From: an uncultured Nitrososphaerota archaeon
GTDB taxonomy: Archaea; Thermoproteota; Nitrososphaeria; Nitrososphaerales; Gagatemarchaeaceae
Assembly (NCBI GenBank): GCA_963718895.1
Contig: CAVRAG010000007.1
Span: forward strand, 96,001 to 160,000
DNA: 64,000 nucleotides
Reading direction: 5' to 3'
The notes under the pieces were generated by a model that had not been told where the DNA came from, made no database searches, and saw only the letters and a program-made list of their open reading frames with translations. Position numbers and translations under genes: made by a program. Positions 31,322 through 35,885 of the stretch are shown here, in pieces (within the stretch, counting starts at the first letter, position 1; every line of letters begins with the position of its first letter).

Positions 31322-31577
31322 CGCCGGCTCGCAGGAGTGCGCGCCCGGCTCTTCTATAAAAGTCTGATGTAGACTTCCTCCACATCCCGCAGGGGTGGGA
31401 GGCCCGGGTCCGCTCTTCTAGGGACAGAACGGCGTCGGGACGTGCAACCGGACTGACTCCCTATGCCGAATCGTCTGGAGAGGCGACCCTTGAAGGTTTG
31501 GAAGACCGAAAGTGCATAAACGTTAAATATATCTGACCGACCTCGCCGGCCGATTAGTCCTTTTCGGTGCAATTGCG

Positions 31578-32521
31578 ATGTCATCTGAACGAGACTTCTC
31601 GAGACTGATGAGGTTGCAGAGGGCGTTGGACAAGTGCCCGAGGTGCGGGAAAGGCCCGATGGTGGTGGACAACGCAACGGCGGCGAGCTCGTCTGCAGCA
31701 ACTGCGGGTTCGTGGTCAAGGAGAAGATCGAGGAGACAGGGCCGGAATGGAGGGCGTTCTCGAAGGAGGAGAAGGACGACAGGTCCAGGGGCGGCATCCC
31801 CGACCTCGATAGCGATGCACGACATGGGGCTGGCCACGGTCATAGGCGGGGTCAACAAGGACGCCTCTGGCAAGTCGCTCTCGGCCTCGATGAAGGCGAC
31901 GGTGGAGAGGCTCAGGACGTGGGACAGCCGGAGCCAGGTCCACGAGCCGATGGACAGGAACCTGAGGCAGGCCTTCAGCGAGCTCGACAGGCTCTCGGAC
32001 AAGCTGTCCGTCTCGGACGCCGTGGTCGAGAAGGCCGCTTACATCTACAGGAAGGCCCTGGAGCGCGGGCTGGTGCAGGGGAAGGTCGATCTCCGCGATA
32101 ATCGCCGCCTCACTCTACGCCGCCTGCAGGGACAGGGAGACGCCGAGGACCCTCAAGGACCTTGCTGTGGTCTCCAACGTCAAGAAGAAGGACATCGCCA
32201 GGTGCTACAGGCTGCTCCTCAAGGAGATGGACATCAAGATGCCCGTGGTCGACCCGACCAAGTGCGTCTCAAGGATAGCGTCCAGGGCGCAGCCTCTCCG
32301 AGAGGACGAAGAGGAGGGCGCTGGAGATACTCAAGAAGGCCGAGGAGGCGCGGATCTCGGCCGGGAAGGACCCGATGGGGCTCGCGGCCGCGGCGCTCTA
32401 CGTGTCGTGCACCCTCGAGGGCGAGGACAAGACCCAGAGGGACGTCGCCGAGGCTGCCGGAGTGACCGAGGTCACAATCCGGAACAGGTACAAGGGGCTC
32501 AGGTCGGCCCTCGGAATATGA
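31578..32521 (+). CDS. tfb: Transcription initiation factor IIB (frameshifted)
   Basis: CPRCG...CSNCG ribbon, GPEWRAF, HDMGLAT, cyclin repeats, GKDPMGLAAAALY, VTEVTIRNRY across frames. Confidence 0.92.
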
Positions 32522-32622: not shown

Positions 32623-33825
32623 ATGTCTCTAGAGAGAGCCGGCGGGAACAGGGAAGAAGAAAGTTCGAACATCAAGACGGGTCAGCTGGCAAAGCTGATC
32701 ACCGAGGTAGGGCCGAACATCTCGGAGATTGCGAGACGGCTCGGTCAGTACAAGGAGTCCGTCCGCTACAGGTACAAGGAGAAGTTGCTCAACAAAGGTT
32801 TCGCGGTCCGGGTCGCCGTCGACCACGAGAAACTCGGGCTGCGCCGGGTCATCATGCTCATGGACTTCGCCGACGGGTACAGGGACGTCGCGGAGTTGAT
32901 GCTTACAATAATGAGCTATGAAGGCTATCTGGTCGCCTTCGAGAAGGTCCTGCCTGACGGGAGGTTCCTCGTGCACGCGTCCGTGCCTGACGAGCAGGTC
33001 GAGGCCTACCGGGAGTTCTTCAGCGGCTTGAGAGAGAAGGGCTACTTCAGGTCGTTCGAGTTCCACACGTTCCACTGGTTCAGGAACTCTCCGATGAAGA
33101 CGGAGATGTACAACTTCGACGAAGGACTCTGGGACTTCGACTGGTCCACTGAGGTGAAGGTTGACAGGCAGGTTGCGTCCTACATGCCTTCGGCGAGAGA
33201 GAAGTTCGACGCCACCGACCTGCAGATCCTCAAGCAGCTCCAGATGGACGGCAACAGGAGCCTCTCCGAGATGGCCGAGAAGCTCAAAATCAACTACAAG
33301 ACGCTCACCTGGCACTTCAGGAAGCACATCGAGGAGAGGAAGCTCATCAAGGGGTACTTGATCAACTGGATGGGGACGAAGTACGACTACAAGGCAGACA
33401 GGGCGCTAAACAAGAAGCACACCTATCTCGCGGTCTCCGTCCTATTCTCAGACCTGGATCAGGCGAAGAGGATTGACGTCATGTCCCGCCTCAACCAGCT
33501 CCCCTTCATCTGGTCCGAGGCCGTCGGAGACAGGTACGAGGCAGAGCTCATCTTCCCGATCGAGTCGATCACAGAGGGGCTCCAGCTCCTGGCCGAGGTC
33601 ATCTCCGAGACCAAGACCAGCGCACGTTACTTCATCATCGACCAGCGCCACGCCCTTTCGTTCAGCATCATCCCCGAGCTCTACAACGAGTCCAAGCAGA
33701 CCTGGGAGTTCAACGACCAGCTTCTCATGCGGCGGTTCGAGAACCTGCTCCAGAGGGCAAAGGGGATAGAGCAAGAAAGCCTATCGCTGCGAAAGACGAA
33801 ACCTGGCCAGCAGATCGGCAGGTAG
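32623..33825 (+). CDS. Tandem Lrp/AsnC-like regulator (two wHTH plus effector-like modules)
   Basis: GPNISEIARRLG...SVRYRY and DATDLQILKQLQMDGNRSLSEMAEKL HTH motifs, each followed by a beta/alpha domain. Confidence 0.75.
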   Translation: MSLERAGGNREEESSNIKTGQLAKLITEVGPNISEIARRLGQYKESVRYRYKEKLLNKGFAVRVAVDHEKLGLRRVIMLMDFADGYRDVAELMLTIMSYEGYLVAFEKVLPDGRFLVHASVPDEQVEAYREFFSGLREKGYFRSFEFHTFHWFRNSPMKTEMYNFDEGLWDFDWSTEVKVDRQVASYMPSAREKFDATDLQILKQLQMDGNRSLSEMAEKLKINYKTLTWHFRKHIEERKLIKGYLINWMGTKYDYKADRALNKKHTYLAVSVLFSDLDQAKRIDVMSRLNQLPFIWSEAVGDRYEAELIFPIESITEGLQLLAEVISETKTSARYFIIDQRHALSFSIIPELYNESKQTWEFNDQLLMRRFENLLQRAKGIEQESLSLRKTKPGQQIGR

Positions 33826-34004
33826 CCGACCCTGCTGCACGGGTCGTCCCGTGATCCCAGAATCCGCCGAAGGCGCATCGATGCGCGTAAGGGGCTTGTT
33901 CCTGGAAGAGGAGAGGGCCGATTGATAGGTAGAGCAGGAACTCTTTTGGTCGTCCGGCTGCTTCAGCGAGTCCCCTAACCCGCCGCAGAACGCCCGCGGG
34001 ACAT

Positions 34005-34020
34005 GGAAAGAAAAGGCGCC
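34005..34020 (-). terminator. T-rich terminator candidate after the repeat-peptide gene
   Basis: Minus strand GGCGCCTTTTCTTTCC about 40 nt after the stop codon. Confidence 0.4.
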
Positions 34021-34053
34021 CCCAGGGCAAGGAGCGCTAGTAGCTCAGTTTGT

Positions 34054-34242
34054 TCAGTTGCTCGGCCCGAATCCGCCGATGGGGTCCAGGGTTACATAGC
34101 TCGGTCCGAACCCGCCTATTGGATCGCAGCTAGGACCGAATCCGCCTATTGGGTCGAGAGTCAGATAGCTCGGCCCGAATCCGCCGATGGGGTCGCAGCT
34201 AGGTCCGAAACCTCCGATTGGGTCTTCTGATTGAGTGCTCAT
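34054..34242 (-). CDS. 62-aa repeat peptide with 5x DPIGGFGPS (candidate multi-core precursor)
   Basis: Five 27-nt copies identical in amino acids but differing at third codon positions; ATG and TGA close to the repeats; upstream TATA-like box. Confidence 0.85.
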   Translation of the reverse strand: MSTQSEDPIGGFGPSCDPIGGFGPSYLTLDPIGGFGPSCDPIGGFGPSYVTLDPIGGFGPSN

Positions 34243-34266
34243 GCAATATGGCTAGCATGGCACGGA

Positions 34267-34294
34267 GTTAAGCTTAGTGATTTCTTAGTATCAC
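34267..34294 (-). promoter_or_regulatory. TATA-like box and GTGAT-N8-ATCAC inverted repeat upstream of the peptide gene
   Basis: CTTAAC (34267-34272, minus strand) about 25 nt before ATG; inverted repeat 34277-34294 just upstream, over the BRE position. Confidence 0.5.
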
Positions 34295-34327
34295 AGTGCA
34301 ATAGTTCATGCGGATTCCAAGATTAGG

Positions 34328-34855
34328 TCAGCCTTCCTTGACCCGGTTCTTCTTCATCTTCCTCAGCTCCTCCTCGGTGAAGAGCGTCCCGAAGTGCGTC
34401 GCGAGGATCTTGACATAGGTCTCGGTCTCCCTCTCGTTCATGTACTGGAACATGTAGTTCCCCCGGTAGGGTGAGGGTTCGCCGTCCCTCGAGATGAACT
34501 CGATGTGGATCAGCGGGTCTCCGTGCCTCACGGTTATCGGCGACCTCTCGTTGTTGAGGTTGACGAGCTCGAGGGCCAGCCTCCCCACGAAGCCGCTGTG
34601 GACCTTCACCGAGTTCAAGAAGGATAGCCCCATCCGCCCGAATCGGCTCTTGGCGGTAAGGTGAGCCACGTAGTTGGGCGGCGTGAAGATGACCTCCTTG
34701 GAGACCATGTTCCTGTGTTCCAGATAGTTCAGCGTCCTGTCCTCCCTGACCGTGAGTACGTAGCCGTCGCCGTCGAAGCCCTCGGGCGAGGTCGGGGAGA
34801 TTACCCTGTACTTCTCGACGAGCTCAGTCAGGATTGATTTGCCGATTACTGTCAT
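34328..34855 (-). CDS. dcd: dCTP deaminase/trimeric dUTPase family
   Basis: AKSRFGRMGL, VHSGFVGRLALELVN, PYRGNY..Q. Confidence 0.8.
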   Translation of the reverse strand: MTVIGKSILTELVEKYRVISPTSPEGFDGDGYVLTVREDRTLNYLEHRNMVSKEVIFTPPNYVAHLTAKSRFGRMGLSFLNSVKVHSGFVGRLALELVNLNNERSPITVRHGDPLIHIEFISRDGEPSPYRGNYMFQYMNERETETYVKILATHFGTLFTEEELRKMKKNRVKEG

Positions 34856-35885
34856 CCGCAGTCACCCCTCCCCGCGTGTTAATAACTCGCTTGAGGAGGC
34901 GGCTGGCGAAGTAGACCAGGCCCGGCAGCCCCAGCAGGAAGACGATGTCTATCGTAGGCACGAAGCTGTAGACGCTGTTGGAAGTCCAGGAGATCCCGTA
35001 TGCGGCCTGCCCATAGAACGCGAAGGCGTTGGCTGCGTAGTCGACGGCCCAGTGGAAGATGATGCTCGCGTGGAGCCCGTATCTGACGTAGAGATAGGCG
35101 AGCGCGACCCCGTCCAGGGCCGCCTCGCTGACCTTTCCGATGTCCCACCCGGCGCCGGAGAGGAAGTGGGCCAGTCCGAAGAGAATCGAGCTCAGGACGA
35201 TAAGGAAGTAGACGAGCACCCTCAGGGTGGGGGCAGAGTAGACCTCGGGCCCTCCGCCGGAGACGCCCTCCCACGCCGAGGAGGGCCGCCAGAGCGCCTT
35301 CAGCATTCGCGTCACGCTCGACCTCGTGAGGAGCATGACGAAGACGAGGGGTACGCCTATCAGGAAGAACCGGAATCCGACCTCCTCGATAAGTGGGGCG
35401 AGGGTGAAGCTCACGAGGAGCCCGTAGGGATCTCCGGAGAGGCCCCCAGAGGGGACGCCGGCGGACGTCTGGAAGAGATCAAGGATTATCGTCGCGAGGA
35501 GCGTCGCGCCAAGGATCATTATCGTCGCCGAGAGCGGGTTTCGCAGAAGGGCGCCCATTCCCTCCCTGGACGCGTCCTTCAGGGCGCGGACGAACCCCCC
35601 TCCCTGCACCGAGGCGAGAGCAAGGAAGAAGGCGAAGAGGACCGTCAGGGAGGCGAAGAGGATCCCGAAAGTGGGGCTGATGGGGAGGGAGATCGCGAAG
35701 AGACCGATGTAGATCGGGACCGAGGCGATCTGGGTCTGATAGGTGTACGGCGGGGTACTCGTCGAGAGGTGGGGCGAGAGGATGGCGTACGTCCCGAACG
35801 GGATGGACAGGACGAAAAGTATCAGCGTGAGCGCCACGATCGCGGCATAGACCAGTCCTGGGACATTGAGCCGGGGCCGCTCCAA
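34824..35885 (-). CDS. CPBP (CAAX/Abi) intramembrane glutamic protease
   Basis: EEVGFR, FGLAH, HWAVD motifs; multi-TM. Confidence 0.88.
   Translation of the reverse strand: MERPRLNVPGLVYAAIVALTLILFVLSIPFGTYAILSPHLSTSTPPYTYQTQIASVPIYIGLFAISLPISPTFGILFASLTVLFAFFLALASVQGGGFVRALKDASREGMGALLRNPLSATIMILGATLLATIILDLFQTSAGVPSGGLSGDPYGLLVSFTLAPLIEEVGFRFFLIGVPLVFVMLLTRSSVTRMLKALWRPSSAWEGVSGGGPEVYSAPTLRVLVYFLIVLSSILFGLAHFLSGAGWDIGKVSEAALDGVALAYLYVRYGLHASIIFHWAVDYAANAFAFYGQAAYGISWTSNSVYSFVPTIDIVFLLGLPGLVYFASRLLKRVINTRGGVTADDSNRQINPD

Follow-up and report, generated by a model that had tools for sequence, protein, structure and literature searches.

A five-copy repeat micro-gene of a Nitrososphaerota archaeon as a probable helix-less descendant of micro-proteins linked to a tandem Lrp/AsnC-fold protein

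Introduction

From what could a gene of 62 codons that spells out the same nine residues five times have arisen, and what would its product do? The question is raised by the minus-strand open reading frame (ORF) at 34054-34242 in a stretch of 64,000 nucleotides (nt) from an uncultured Nitrososphaerota archaeon, referred to here in its full length as the window; G000 denotes the genome to which the window belongs, and the other G numbers its relatives. The product reads MSTQSE followed by five copies of DPIGGFGPS, separated by the spacers C, YLTL, C and YVTL, with N as its last residue. A preliminary description, made from the letters of the window, had taken it for a candidate precursor of ribosomally synthesized and post-translationally modified peptides (RiPPs), in which a short leader would precede repeated cores. 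The analysis presented here points to another origin, and this descriptive part is put forward with high confidence: a real gene, derived from a family of micro-proteins formed by one helix and a C-terminal tail, in which first the helix would have been lost and then the tail multiplied. The function proposed for the product is a more tentative matter, and is argued separately.

Results

The gene opens with ATG and closes, after its 62 codons, with TGA, and the five copies, found both by reading and by a motif pattern, lie on the minus strand at 34198-34224, 34168-34194, 34129-34155, 34099-34125 and 34060-34086, in the order in which they are translated. A degenerate back-translation of the motif matches the 3.13-Mb genome at these five places, all inside 34054-34242, and its reversed control matches nowhere. 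At the level of DNA, Tandem Repeats Finder describes a double unit of 69 nt present in 2.4 copies with 82% matches, with sub-periods of 30 nt. When the five 27-nt units are compared, seven nucleotide columns vary, all seven at the third codon position and all seven synonymously, and the codon differences counted over all pairs come to 41 synonymous and none non-synonymous, this in a unit where just 20 of the 81 single-base changes open to it would leave the peptide unaltered; the invariant codons are those for Phe and Ser. The same holds for 13 copies in three genomes, in which the eight variable columns are all third positions and the sole change of residue is D to E, and in G011 two versions of the DNA unit alternate, with five synonymous differences in the core and with spacers that do differ in their residues (SM versus TL). 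An ORF of 75 residues is also open on the opposite strand (34003-34230), but there the same differences between copies alter residues, so that the frame under selection is 34054-34242 of the minus strand. It is thus the peptide, and not the DNA repeat, that is under selection, which purifies the core of the tail and leaves the spacers, of one to four residues, free to change.

In these respects the preliminary description had read the locus well. The ORF of 62 residues and the positions of its copies agree exactly with the ORF list and with the pattern matches, seven of the nine codons do vary, and the claim that selection acts on the peptide is borne out by the counts above; nor is there a signal peptide, the highest 15-residue Kyte-Doolittle mean of the product being 0.58, with no hydrophobic segment, against 1.8-2.0 in the helix-bearing relatives presented below.

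The repeated unit is also the tail of another kind of protein. The point of entry was a pattern match in a genome of another genus (G255), immediately beyond a paralog of the gene for a tandem Lrp/AsnC-fold protein (below, the regulator), the same gene that faces the repeat gene in the window; there, an ORF of 40 residues reads MTLDEKVRYGMLALTGASFVFAALGLKLGPLDPIGGFGSG. A search with this ORF gave matches in 89 of the GTDB family's 97 genomes, 25 of the 26 high-quality ones among them, and in all ten genera, usually in several copies per genome, and delineates a family of single-helix micro-proteins of about 40 residues with the consensus MTLDEKIRYGMLAL.GAS.VFASLGL..GPLEIIGG.G.., in which a single hydrophobic helix separates an N-terminal MT.DEK.R.G from the tail, GPL[ED]..GG.G.., at the C-terminus. 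An alignment of 22 sequences (A1) contains 7 invariant and 10 nearly invariant positions among its 40 columns, and the most variable residues are the last two to four, which differ between paralogs. It is to this tail that the unit of the window corresponds: DPIGGFG is found in the tail of G255 (LDPIGGFGSG), the same-genus G003 has LDPIGGVGP, and the two behave as bridging forms, ending in ...KLGPLDPIGGFGSG and ...HPGILDPIGGVGP, respectively. The tail motif P-L-[ED]-x-x-G-G-x-G, by which membership was judged, was found in the window product; the N-terminal MT.DEK.R.G and the hydrophobic helix are missing from it, and the A1 profile misses 34054-34242 in its own genome.

Three further micro-ORFs exist in the genome of the window, beside three regulator paralogs. 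Two are canonical helix forms, and the third is a divergent form of 47 residues (G000:C8:1144177-1144320) beside a distant regulator paralog, reading MRLSL...HIGGLDGDPIGGGPT, with DGDPIGGGPT at its end; because the A1 profile missed this form, the family is larger than that profile reveals. In a sample of 121 genomes of the order, micro-ORFs were found in 25, distributed over the families f1 (13 of 14 genomes), f7 (8 of 13), f17 (1 of 1), f18 (1 of 2) and f14 (1 of 14), and none was found in f12, f15, f9, f11 or f4; these counts include the unpublished genome G140, without which f7 has the micro-ORF in 7 of 12 genomes and the regulator in 12 of 12. A scan of one genome per species gave 53 loci, 52 of them in metagenome-assembled genomes (MAGs) labelled Nitrososphaerota, Thaumarchaeota or "archaeon", and the genomes concerned include isolates that are listed as Gagatemarchaeaceae in a part of PMC10640624. 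The remaining locus is in a MAG labelled "uncultured delta proteobacterium", probably an error of binning or labelling. The 43 longer proteins (71-168 residues) that could have passed for fused forms were set aside, as the five inspected are all over-extended gene calls whose homology is confined to the C-terminal 40 residues, from MT.DEK onward.

Searches with the 62-residue product itself were much less informative. A word-indexed protein search at near lengths returned no scored match; HMMER against 1.84 billion representatives returned 16 matches at E ≤ 1e-3, of which the ten inspected are all unrelated low-complexity repeat proteins; and the Atlas search gave no usable match for either the repeat form or the helix form. 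Pfam and NCBIfam have nothing at curated cut-offs for the repeat product or for the helix family, the matches to MSSP (E 0.0043) and AGP (E 0.035) being below the Pfam cut-offs and rejected. The 157 database clusters of the helix family are all named "hypothetical protein" and come from Nitrososphaerales or Thaumarchaeota MAGs, and the motif strings are absent from all of the 8.4 million papers searched, supplementary tables not included (families of genes from these MAGs could appear in those of PMC10640624). With no family model and no other name, the micro-proteins as a family appear to be undescribed, and so does their linkage with a duplicated Lrp/AsnC-fold protein, in keeping with the earlier statement that no archaeal family with this motif had been described.

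Closer to the window, a whole-genome search of 61 relatives gave real matches in three genomes of the same genus (G011, 3e-22; G001, 6e-11; G002, 5e-5), and among 401 genomes of the order the multi-copy pattern occurs only in G000, G011 and G001. The remaining orthologs were located by position, anchoring on dcd, the dCTP-deaminase-like gene (34328-34855, minus strand) that precedes the repeat gene; dcd was matched in 69 of the 97 family genomes, and the DNA 3′ of its stop codon was inspected in 30 loci. In 11 of the 12 loci of the same genus a small ORF starts 83-93 nt past the dcd stop, and the 18 loci of other genera (one of them with just 11 nt of downstream sequence) have no such ORF after dcd. 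Orthologs at the same place are thus available from 10 other genomes of the genus and from one metagenome contig, and they take three forms. Four genomes have the helix and one tail in 39-40 residues: G003, with MTIDQKVRFGMAAATAATMLIAGIGLHPGILDPIGGVGP, and G013, G015 and G004, with MT[IY]DQKVRYG.MALAAASFLLAS.G.HPGPLDPTGPGPLT. Three have a single tail copy and no helix, namely G007 (MNTQTEDPMGGVGPSN, 16 residues), G010 (MSTQLQDPIGGAGPSY, 16 residues) and G005 (MGRPSRDPIGGAGPSLCPRA, 20 residues). The others, like the window with its 62 residues and five copies, have several: G011 has MNTLE and five DPIGGFGPSY units with SM or TL spacers (63 residues); G001 has three copies in 39 residues, with D, E and E at the first position of the unit; G002 has MNTQN and at least four GPIGGAGPRYSN units, in a gene broken over two contig ends (C107 and C134) that cut it short; and the metagenome contig, a single one obtained in a scan for the promoter-like element plus the motif, has a further three-copy form in the same gene order. 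In G002 the four visible units share one and the same DNA sequence, which is not the case in G000, G011 or G001. The eight helix-less examples (seven genomes and the contig) all keep the start codon, the frame and the core P-x-G-G-x-G-P, although their dcd neighbours have diverged to 87-95% identity. As a separate observation on this genus, 10 of its 22 genomes have no dcd match at E ≤ 1e-10 and have regulator paralogs only about 40% identical, and it seems to be divided into two sub-groups, distinct from each other at the locus of dcd and the micro-gene.

The order in which these forms could have succeeded one another was read from a maximum-likelihood tree of the 12 dcd-adjacent regulator orthologs, for which 6 of the 19 available paralogs served as the outgroup. 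Basal positions are taken by the genomes with helix forms (G003; G013, G004 and G015); all the helix-less forms fall in one clade (support 90/91), in which the single-copy G005, and G010 with G007, branch first; and the multi-copy G002, G000, metagenome contig, G001 and G011 are nested inside it as a single clade (92/87). The most economical history would then run from a helix with one tail, through the loss of the helix, which left ORFs of 16-20 residues, to the amplification of the tail into three, five or at least four copies, and the hydropathy of the two ends of the series is consistent with this order. A single internal deletion could have brought the start region directly up to the final residues, about ten in number (D-P-I-G-G-x-G-P-x-x), and tandem amplification would have begun once, followed by changes in copy number and spacers. 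Position, bridging forms and the regulator tree together indicate that 34054-34242 is a derived and truncated member of the family.

The protein with which the family is associated is encoded in the window at 32623-33825 (plus strand, 400 residues), convergent with the micro-gene and downstream of it, and Pfam recognizes in it HTH_24 and HTH_AsnC only. An AlphaFold2 model built on an alignment of 28 sequences (mean predicted local distance difference test score 82.9) shows, in one chain, two units each composed of a three-helix winged helix-turn-helix and a beta-alpha-beta-beta-alpha-beta domain. The best full-length Foldseek match is the siroheme decarboxylase NirDL (PDB 4ch7; E 2.4e-9, TM-scores 0.52/0.64), in which two units of winged helix-turn-helix plus alpha-beta domain are likewise fused in one chain; single-unit Lrp/AsnC regulators also match, at E down to 3.8e-5 and with target-normalized TM-scores up to 0.73, mostly 0.5-0.6, several of the matched structures having been solved with amino-acid ligands, and a sequence search of the PDB agrees with the Lrp/AsnC assignment. 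According to the model, then, this is a covalently duplicated Lrp/AsnC-fold protein, and its fold suggests a regulatory role. An identity as a heme-pathway enzyme was rejected because of the five to six paralogs in its own genome together with the low identity to NirDL (11%), from which its pairing with micro-ORFs also sets it apart. More precisely, six paralog genes were counted in the genome, one of them split (on contig C4), and relatives have from 1 to 12 matches per genome.

The association itself is tight. Of 56 locus entries, some of them places fetched twice, 55 have the micro-ORF convergent with a regulator paralog, and the remaining one is on a short piece without a regulator. The regulator is the only near-universal neighbour in the loci of named MAGs (50 of 53), the micro-ORF is found in 29 of 30 regulator loci, and the 12 micro-ORF places listed outside the family of the window are all within about 600 nt of a regulator paralog. 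In the order sample, 41 of the 121 genomes have the regulator; they include all 25 with a micro-ORF, and of the other 80, which lack the regulator, not one has a micro-ORF. The stop codons of helix forms are within a few tens of nt of the 3′ end of the regulator, with as little as 6 nt between stops, in contrast with the 228 nt (33826-34053) that separate the two in the window. Orthologs of the window's own regulator (67-91% identity) are paired with helix forms in G003, G004, G013 and G015. The pair is convergent in f1, f14, f17 and f18 and is formed by divergent neighbours in f7, and overlap between the two transcripts is hence not needed for the linkage. This coupling of micro-protein gene and tandem Lrp/AsnC-fold protein, seen in both orientations, extends over at least five GTDB families. 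Another gene met repeatedly at these loci is that of a VIT-family transporter (iron/manganese, PF01988), divergently upstream of the helix-form micro-ORF in 30 of the 53 (for example L071, 2957-3661, plus strand), possibly a regulated target of the main ortholog of the module.

As regards expression, contigs assembled from three peat metatranscriptome runs of one study (X1-X3) were placed on 33700-35000. The ORF is covered in two of the three runs: in one by a contig of 167 nt over 34052-34218 with no differences, an identity that also excludes an assembly artefact as the source of the repeats, and in another by a contig of 175 nt over 34048-34222 with one difference (plus strand C>A at 34143, in copy 3). 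The third run covers only 33740-33915, that is, the 3′ end of the regulator and 90 nt past its stop codon, and three other runs (X4-X6) contain next to none of the sequence words of the stretch. Evidence of moderate weight thus indicates that the gene is probably transcribed.

The element at 34268-34286 (minus strand) consists of a purine-rich AAGAAA and a TATA-like CTAAGCTTAA whose end is 25 nt before the ATG; as CTAAG[CT]TTAA it is kept at that distance in 9 of the 11 same-genus loci that bear the small ORF and in seven of the eight helix-less examples. Such conservation suggests a promoter, and its position would imply an mRNA that is leaderless or nearly so. On the other side, 34007-34037 is likely a terminator, with a predicted 8-bp GC hairpin at 34016-34037, seen in both the minimum free energy and the centroid fold, followed by the T-rich tract TTTTCTTT at 34007-34014. 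Both the TATA-like box about 25 nt upstream and the downstream T-rich tract of the preliminary description are accordingly present. The predicted RNA fold is of unremarkable stability (z = +1.34, with 182 of 200 shuffled sequences folding equally well or better), and Rfam and tRNA scans of the window gave no match.

Upstream of dcd, and overlapping its start by 32 nt, a CPBP/Rce1-like membrane protease is encoded on the same strand (34824-35885). This pair is kept in 27 of 30 loci across the GTDB family and constitutes a conserved protease-dcd operon. A functional link of the micro-gene with the protease was rejected, as CPBP also precedes dcd in genera without the peptide, and so was a link with dcd, a near-universal single gene (25 of the 26 high-quality genomes) from which the helix-form relatives are located elsewhere. 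The other genes within about 10 kb encode TFB, a DUF7521 membrane protein, a beta-propeller, a cupredoxin, dehydrogenases and an EamA transporter, and the nearest ABC transporter (ABC-2) is about 8 kb away. The TFB gene (31551-32518, plus strand) is split over at least three frames (31551-32084, 32068-32289 and 32294-32518), where G001, G010 and G015 each have one uninterrupted ORF, 320-332 codons from stop to stop; in the window it is either a pseudogene or the result of assembly indel errors, in a genome that is 80.5% complete in 11 contigs.

Discussion

If the descriptive history is accepted, a function can be proposed from what evolution dropped and what it kept. The tail would be the working module, because the tail alone was kept and multiplied, and the product of the window would be a soluble, probably disordered and multivalent version of the ancestral tail, able to engage the same partner as the tail of the membrane-anchored ancestor. 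The favoured partner is the adjacent tandem Lrp/AsnC-fold regulator, in the cytoplasm, whose activity or oligomeric state the peptide would modulate. A cytoplasmic target is favoured because the helix-less gene persisted in all eight examples and then expanded, from which it would follow that the partner could be reached without insertion in the membrane. More copies would mean a greater dose or valency, and post-translational tailoring would be unnecessary. A multivalent, probably disordered ligand for an oligomeric Lrp-type protein would be plausible. A known system to compare is MgrB, a small single-helix membrane protein that modulates the sensor PhoQ: the ancestral family resembles it in its 39-40 residues (47 in the divergent form), its one helix and its linkage to a regulator, but there is no relationship of sequence, the partner here is a DNA-binding protein of soluble type and not a membrane sensor, and the member in the window has no helix. 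Taken as a whole, with the action on the paired regulator included, this explanation is offered tentatively, at a little under an even chance.

Several observations weigh against it. The choice of partner follows from gene linkage only; the effector domains of Lrp/AsnC proteins bind amino acids and other small molecules, and we know of no peptide ligand for them. The linkage has its gaps, since the regulator stands without a detectable micro-ORF in 16 of the 41 regulator-bearing genomes of the order sample and in 1 of the 30 regulator loci, no micro-ORF was recognized beside the paralog at G000:C8:340132-341250, and in G002 the repeat gene stays beside dcd with its 3′ end about 1.2 kb upstream of the regulator and on the same strand. 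In the ancestral family the N-terminus and the helix are conserved at least as much as the tail, and the function of the helix-less gene, with the helix gone and little of the N-terminus kept, may have changed. At the level of RNA, the C>A difference at 34143 makes TGA of the GGA that encodes the second Gly of copy 3, a premature stop in one of the two contigs over the ORF, in such a way that copies 3-5 may be dispensable, or the constraint may be weaker than the comparison of copies implies; moreover, these contigs give neither strand nor ends and could include DNA carry-over. A complex prediction of two regulator copies with the 62-residue product scored 0.01 with no verdict and weighs neither way; the partner's own fold was also uncertain in it.

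The main rival would make of the ancestor a secreted signal: the product of about 40 residues would be exported by means of its hydrophobic segment and set free its tail, which the adjacent regulator would sense, as in the RRNPP systems of the Bacillota (Rap-Phr, Rgg-SHP), and the gene of the window would be a multi-pheromone pro-peptide, cut between its repeats and exported by another route. In both cases a very small ORF is coupled to a regulator, there are several paralogous pairs per genome, and the product of about 40 residues has a hydrophobic stretch in its first half and a conserved C-terminal part; in the archaeal family the N-terminus is also charged and the regulator is of cytoplasmic type. 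It is exactly this C-terminal part that was kept and multiplied, and its last two to four residues vary between paralogs. Rap-Phr pro-peptides that are tandemly duplicated are known (PMC11343458), and Rgg peptides that lack a classical signal are exported by an ABC transporter (PMC7564271). A tiny gene for a protein or peptide that is coupled to a regulator, in some cases with repeated active units, is as a general kind already known from bacteria. Against this, the host is an archaeon and the receptor would have an Lrp/AsnC fold rather than TPR; the product of the window has no hydrophobic segment with which to be exported; no transporter is among the conserved neighbours of the 53 loci, the nearest ABC gene of the window being the distant one already mentioned; no protease site is evident between the repeats; and an ancestral N-terminus and helix as conserved as those of A1 would be unusual for a mere export signal. 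On balance, such a signal cassette is unlikely, though it deserves to be kept in view, and the stronger claim that the helix-plus-tail micro-proteins and their tandem Lrp/AsnC partners are the first archaeal peptide-receptor communication cassettes, with the gene of the window releasing signals of about ten residues, is more doubtful still.

A second alternative would deny any function to the gene after the loss of the helix, the repeats being a product of slippage that has stayed open by chance. The premature stop in one RNA contig, the labile number of copies (one, three, five or at least four) and the identical DNA of the four visible copies of G002, which points to recent expansion, would all fit such a decaying remnant. 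However, start, frame and core are kept by every helix-less example and the promoter-like element by nearly all, beside dcd genes that have diverged appreciably, and the differences between copies are synonymous only; the RNA libraries, in turn, cover the ORF and not dcd or CPBP, even if uncovered stretches in these runs are not evidence of silence. A remnant is thus unlikely, and strongly so.

The reading as a multi-core RiPP precursor, with repeats excised and then cyclized or cross-linked by dedicated enzymes, has a slightly slimmer chance. The likeness to the precursors with cyanobactin, fungal dikaritin and plant BURP-type cores is real: a short N-terminal piece, identical short cores under purifying selection, and variable spacers. 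But these precursors belong with enzymes, and here, apart from the CPBP protease tied to dcd, radical SAM, YcaO, ATP-grasp and peptidase genes for tailoring are missing from the roughly 10 kb to each side and from the conserved neighbours, and YcaO has no match in the genome at its 80.5% completeness. The S9-family peptidases sought as partners do exist, with seven Peptidase_S9 matches, all on another contig, but they say little, because 13 of 14 control genomes have S9 too. The motif search and the tabulation of neighbours that had been suggested for this reading did yield orthologs in the same genus, and the sole conserved neighbour that came with them is the tandem Lrp/AsnC-fold protein and not an enzyme; the RNA libraries likewise gave the coverage of the ORF that was looked for, with a stop in copy 3 in one of the two contigs. 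The spacer residues Cys and Tyr, through which cross-links had been imagined, are not conserved between orthologs (C, YLTL, YSM, YTL, YSN), nor are there conserved sequences for recognition or cleavage. Finally, orthologs with one unit in 16-20 residues, and older ones with a helix, do not fit a leader followed by cores; the repeat is the amplified C-terminal tail of a micro-protein and corresponds to no known type of such a precursor.

Least probable of all is that the transcript itself is what acts, as an antisense or structured RNA upon the convergent regulator gene, for although transcripts probably overlap where helix-form stops are down to 6 nt apart, and the RNA contig at 33740-33915 does run beyond the regulator stop, the substitutions follow a protein-like pattern, neither the fold stability nor Rfam singles out an RNA, the pair is divergent in another family, and 228 nt lie between the two stop codons of the window's pair.

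Conclusion

To our knowledge, the small proteins of archaea are almost unannotated, and what is described here is a micro-protein family present, in several copies per genome, in almost all searched genomes of a widespread family of Thaumarchaeota from acid soils and peat. With the duplicated Lrp/AsnC-fold protein to which it is strictly coupled, it makes up a two-gene module open to test. The gene of the window amounts to a natural dissection of this family, in which the helix was removed and a tail of ten residues was kept and multiplied, and it could provide a soluble reagent for binding studies. If the peptide signals to the regulator, or if the micro-protein controls it, this would be a new class of archaeal regulation; and if the peptide-receptor reading in particular were true, it would be a system resembling quorum sensing on a receptor fold not known to have been linked to the sensing of peptides. 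Otherwise, it would still be a clear case of a micro-gene changing its form.

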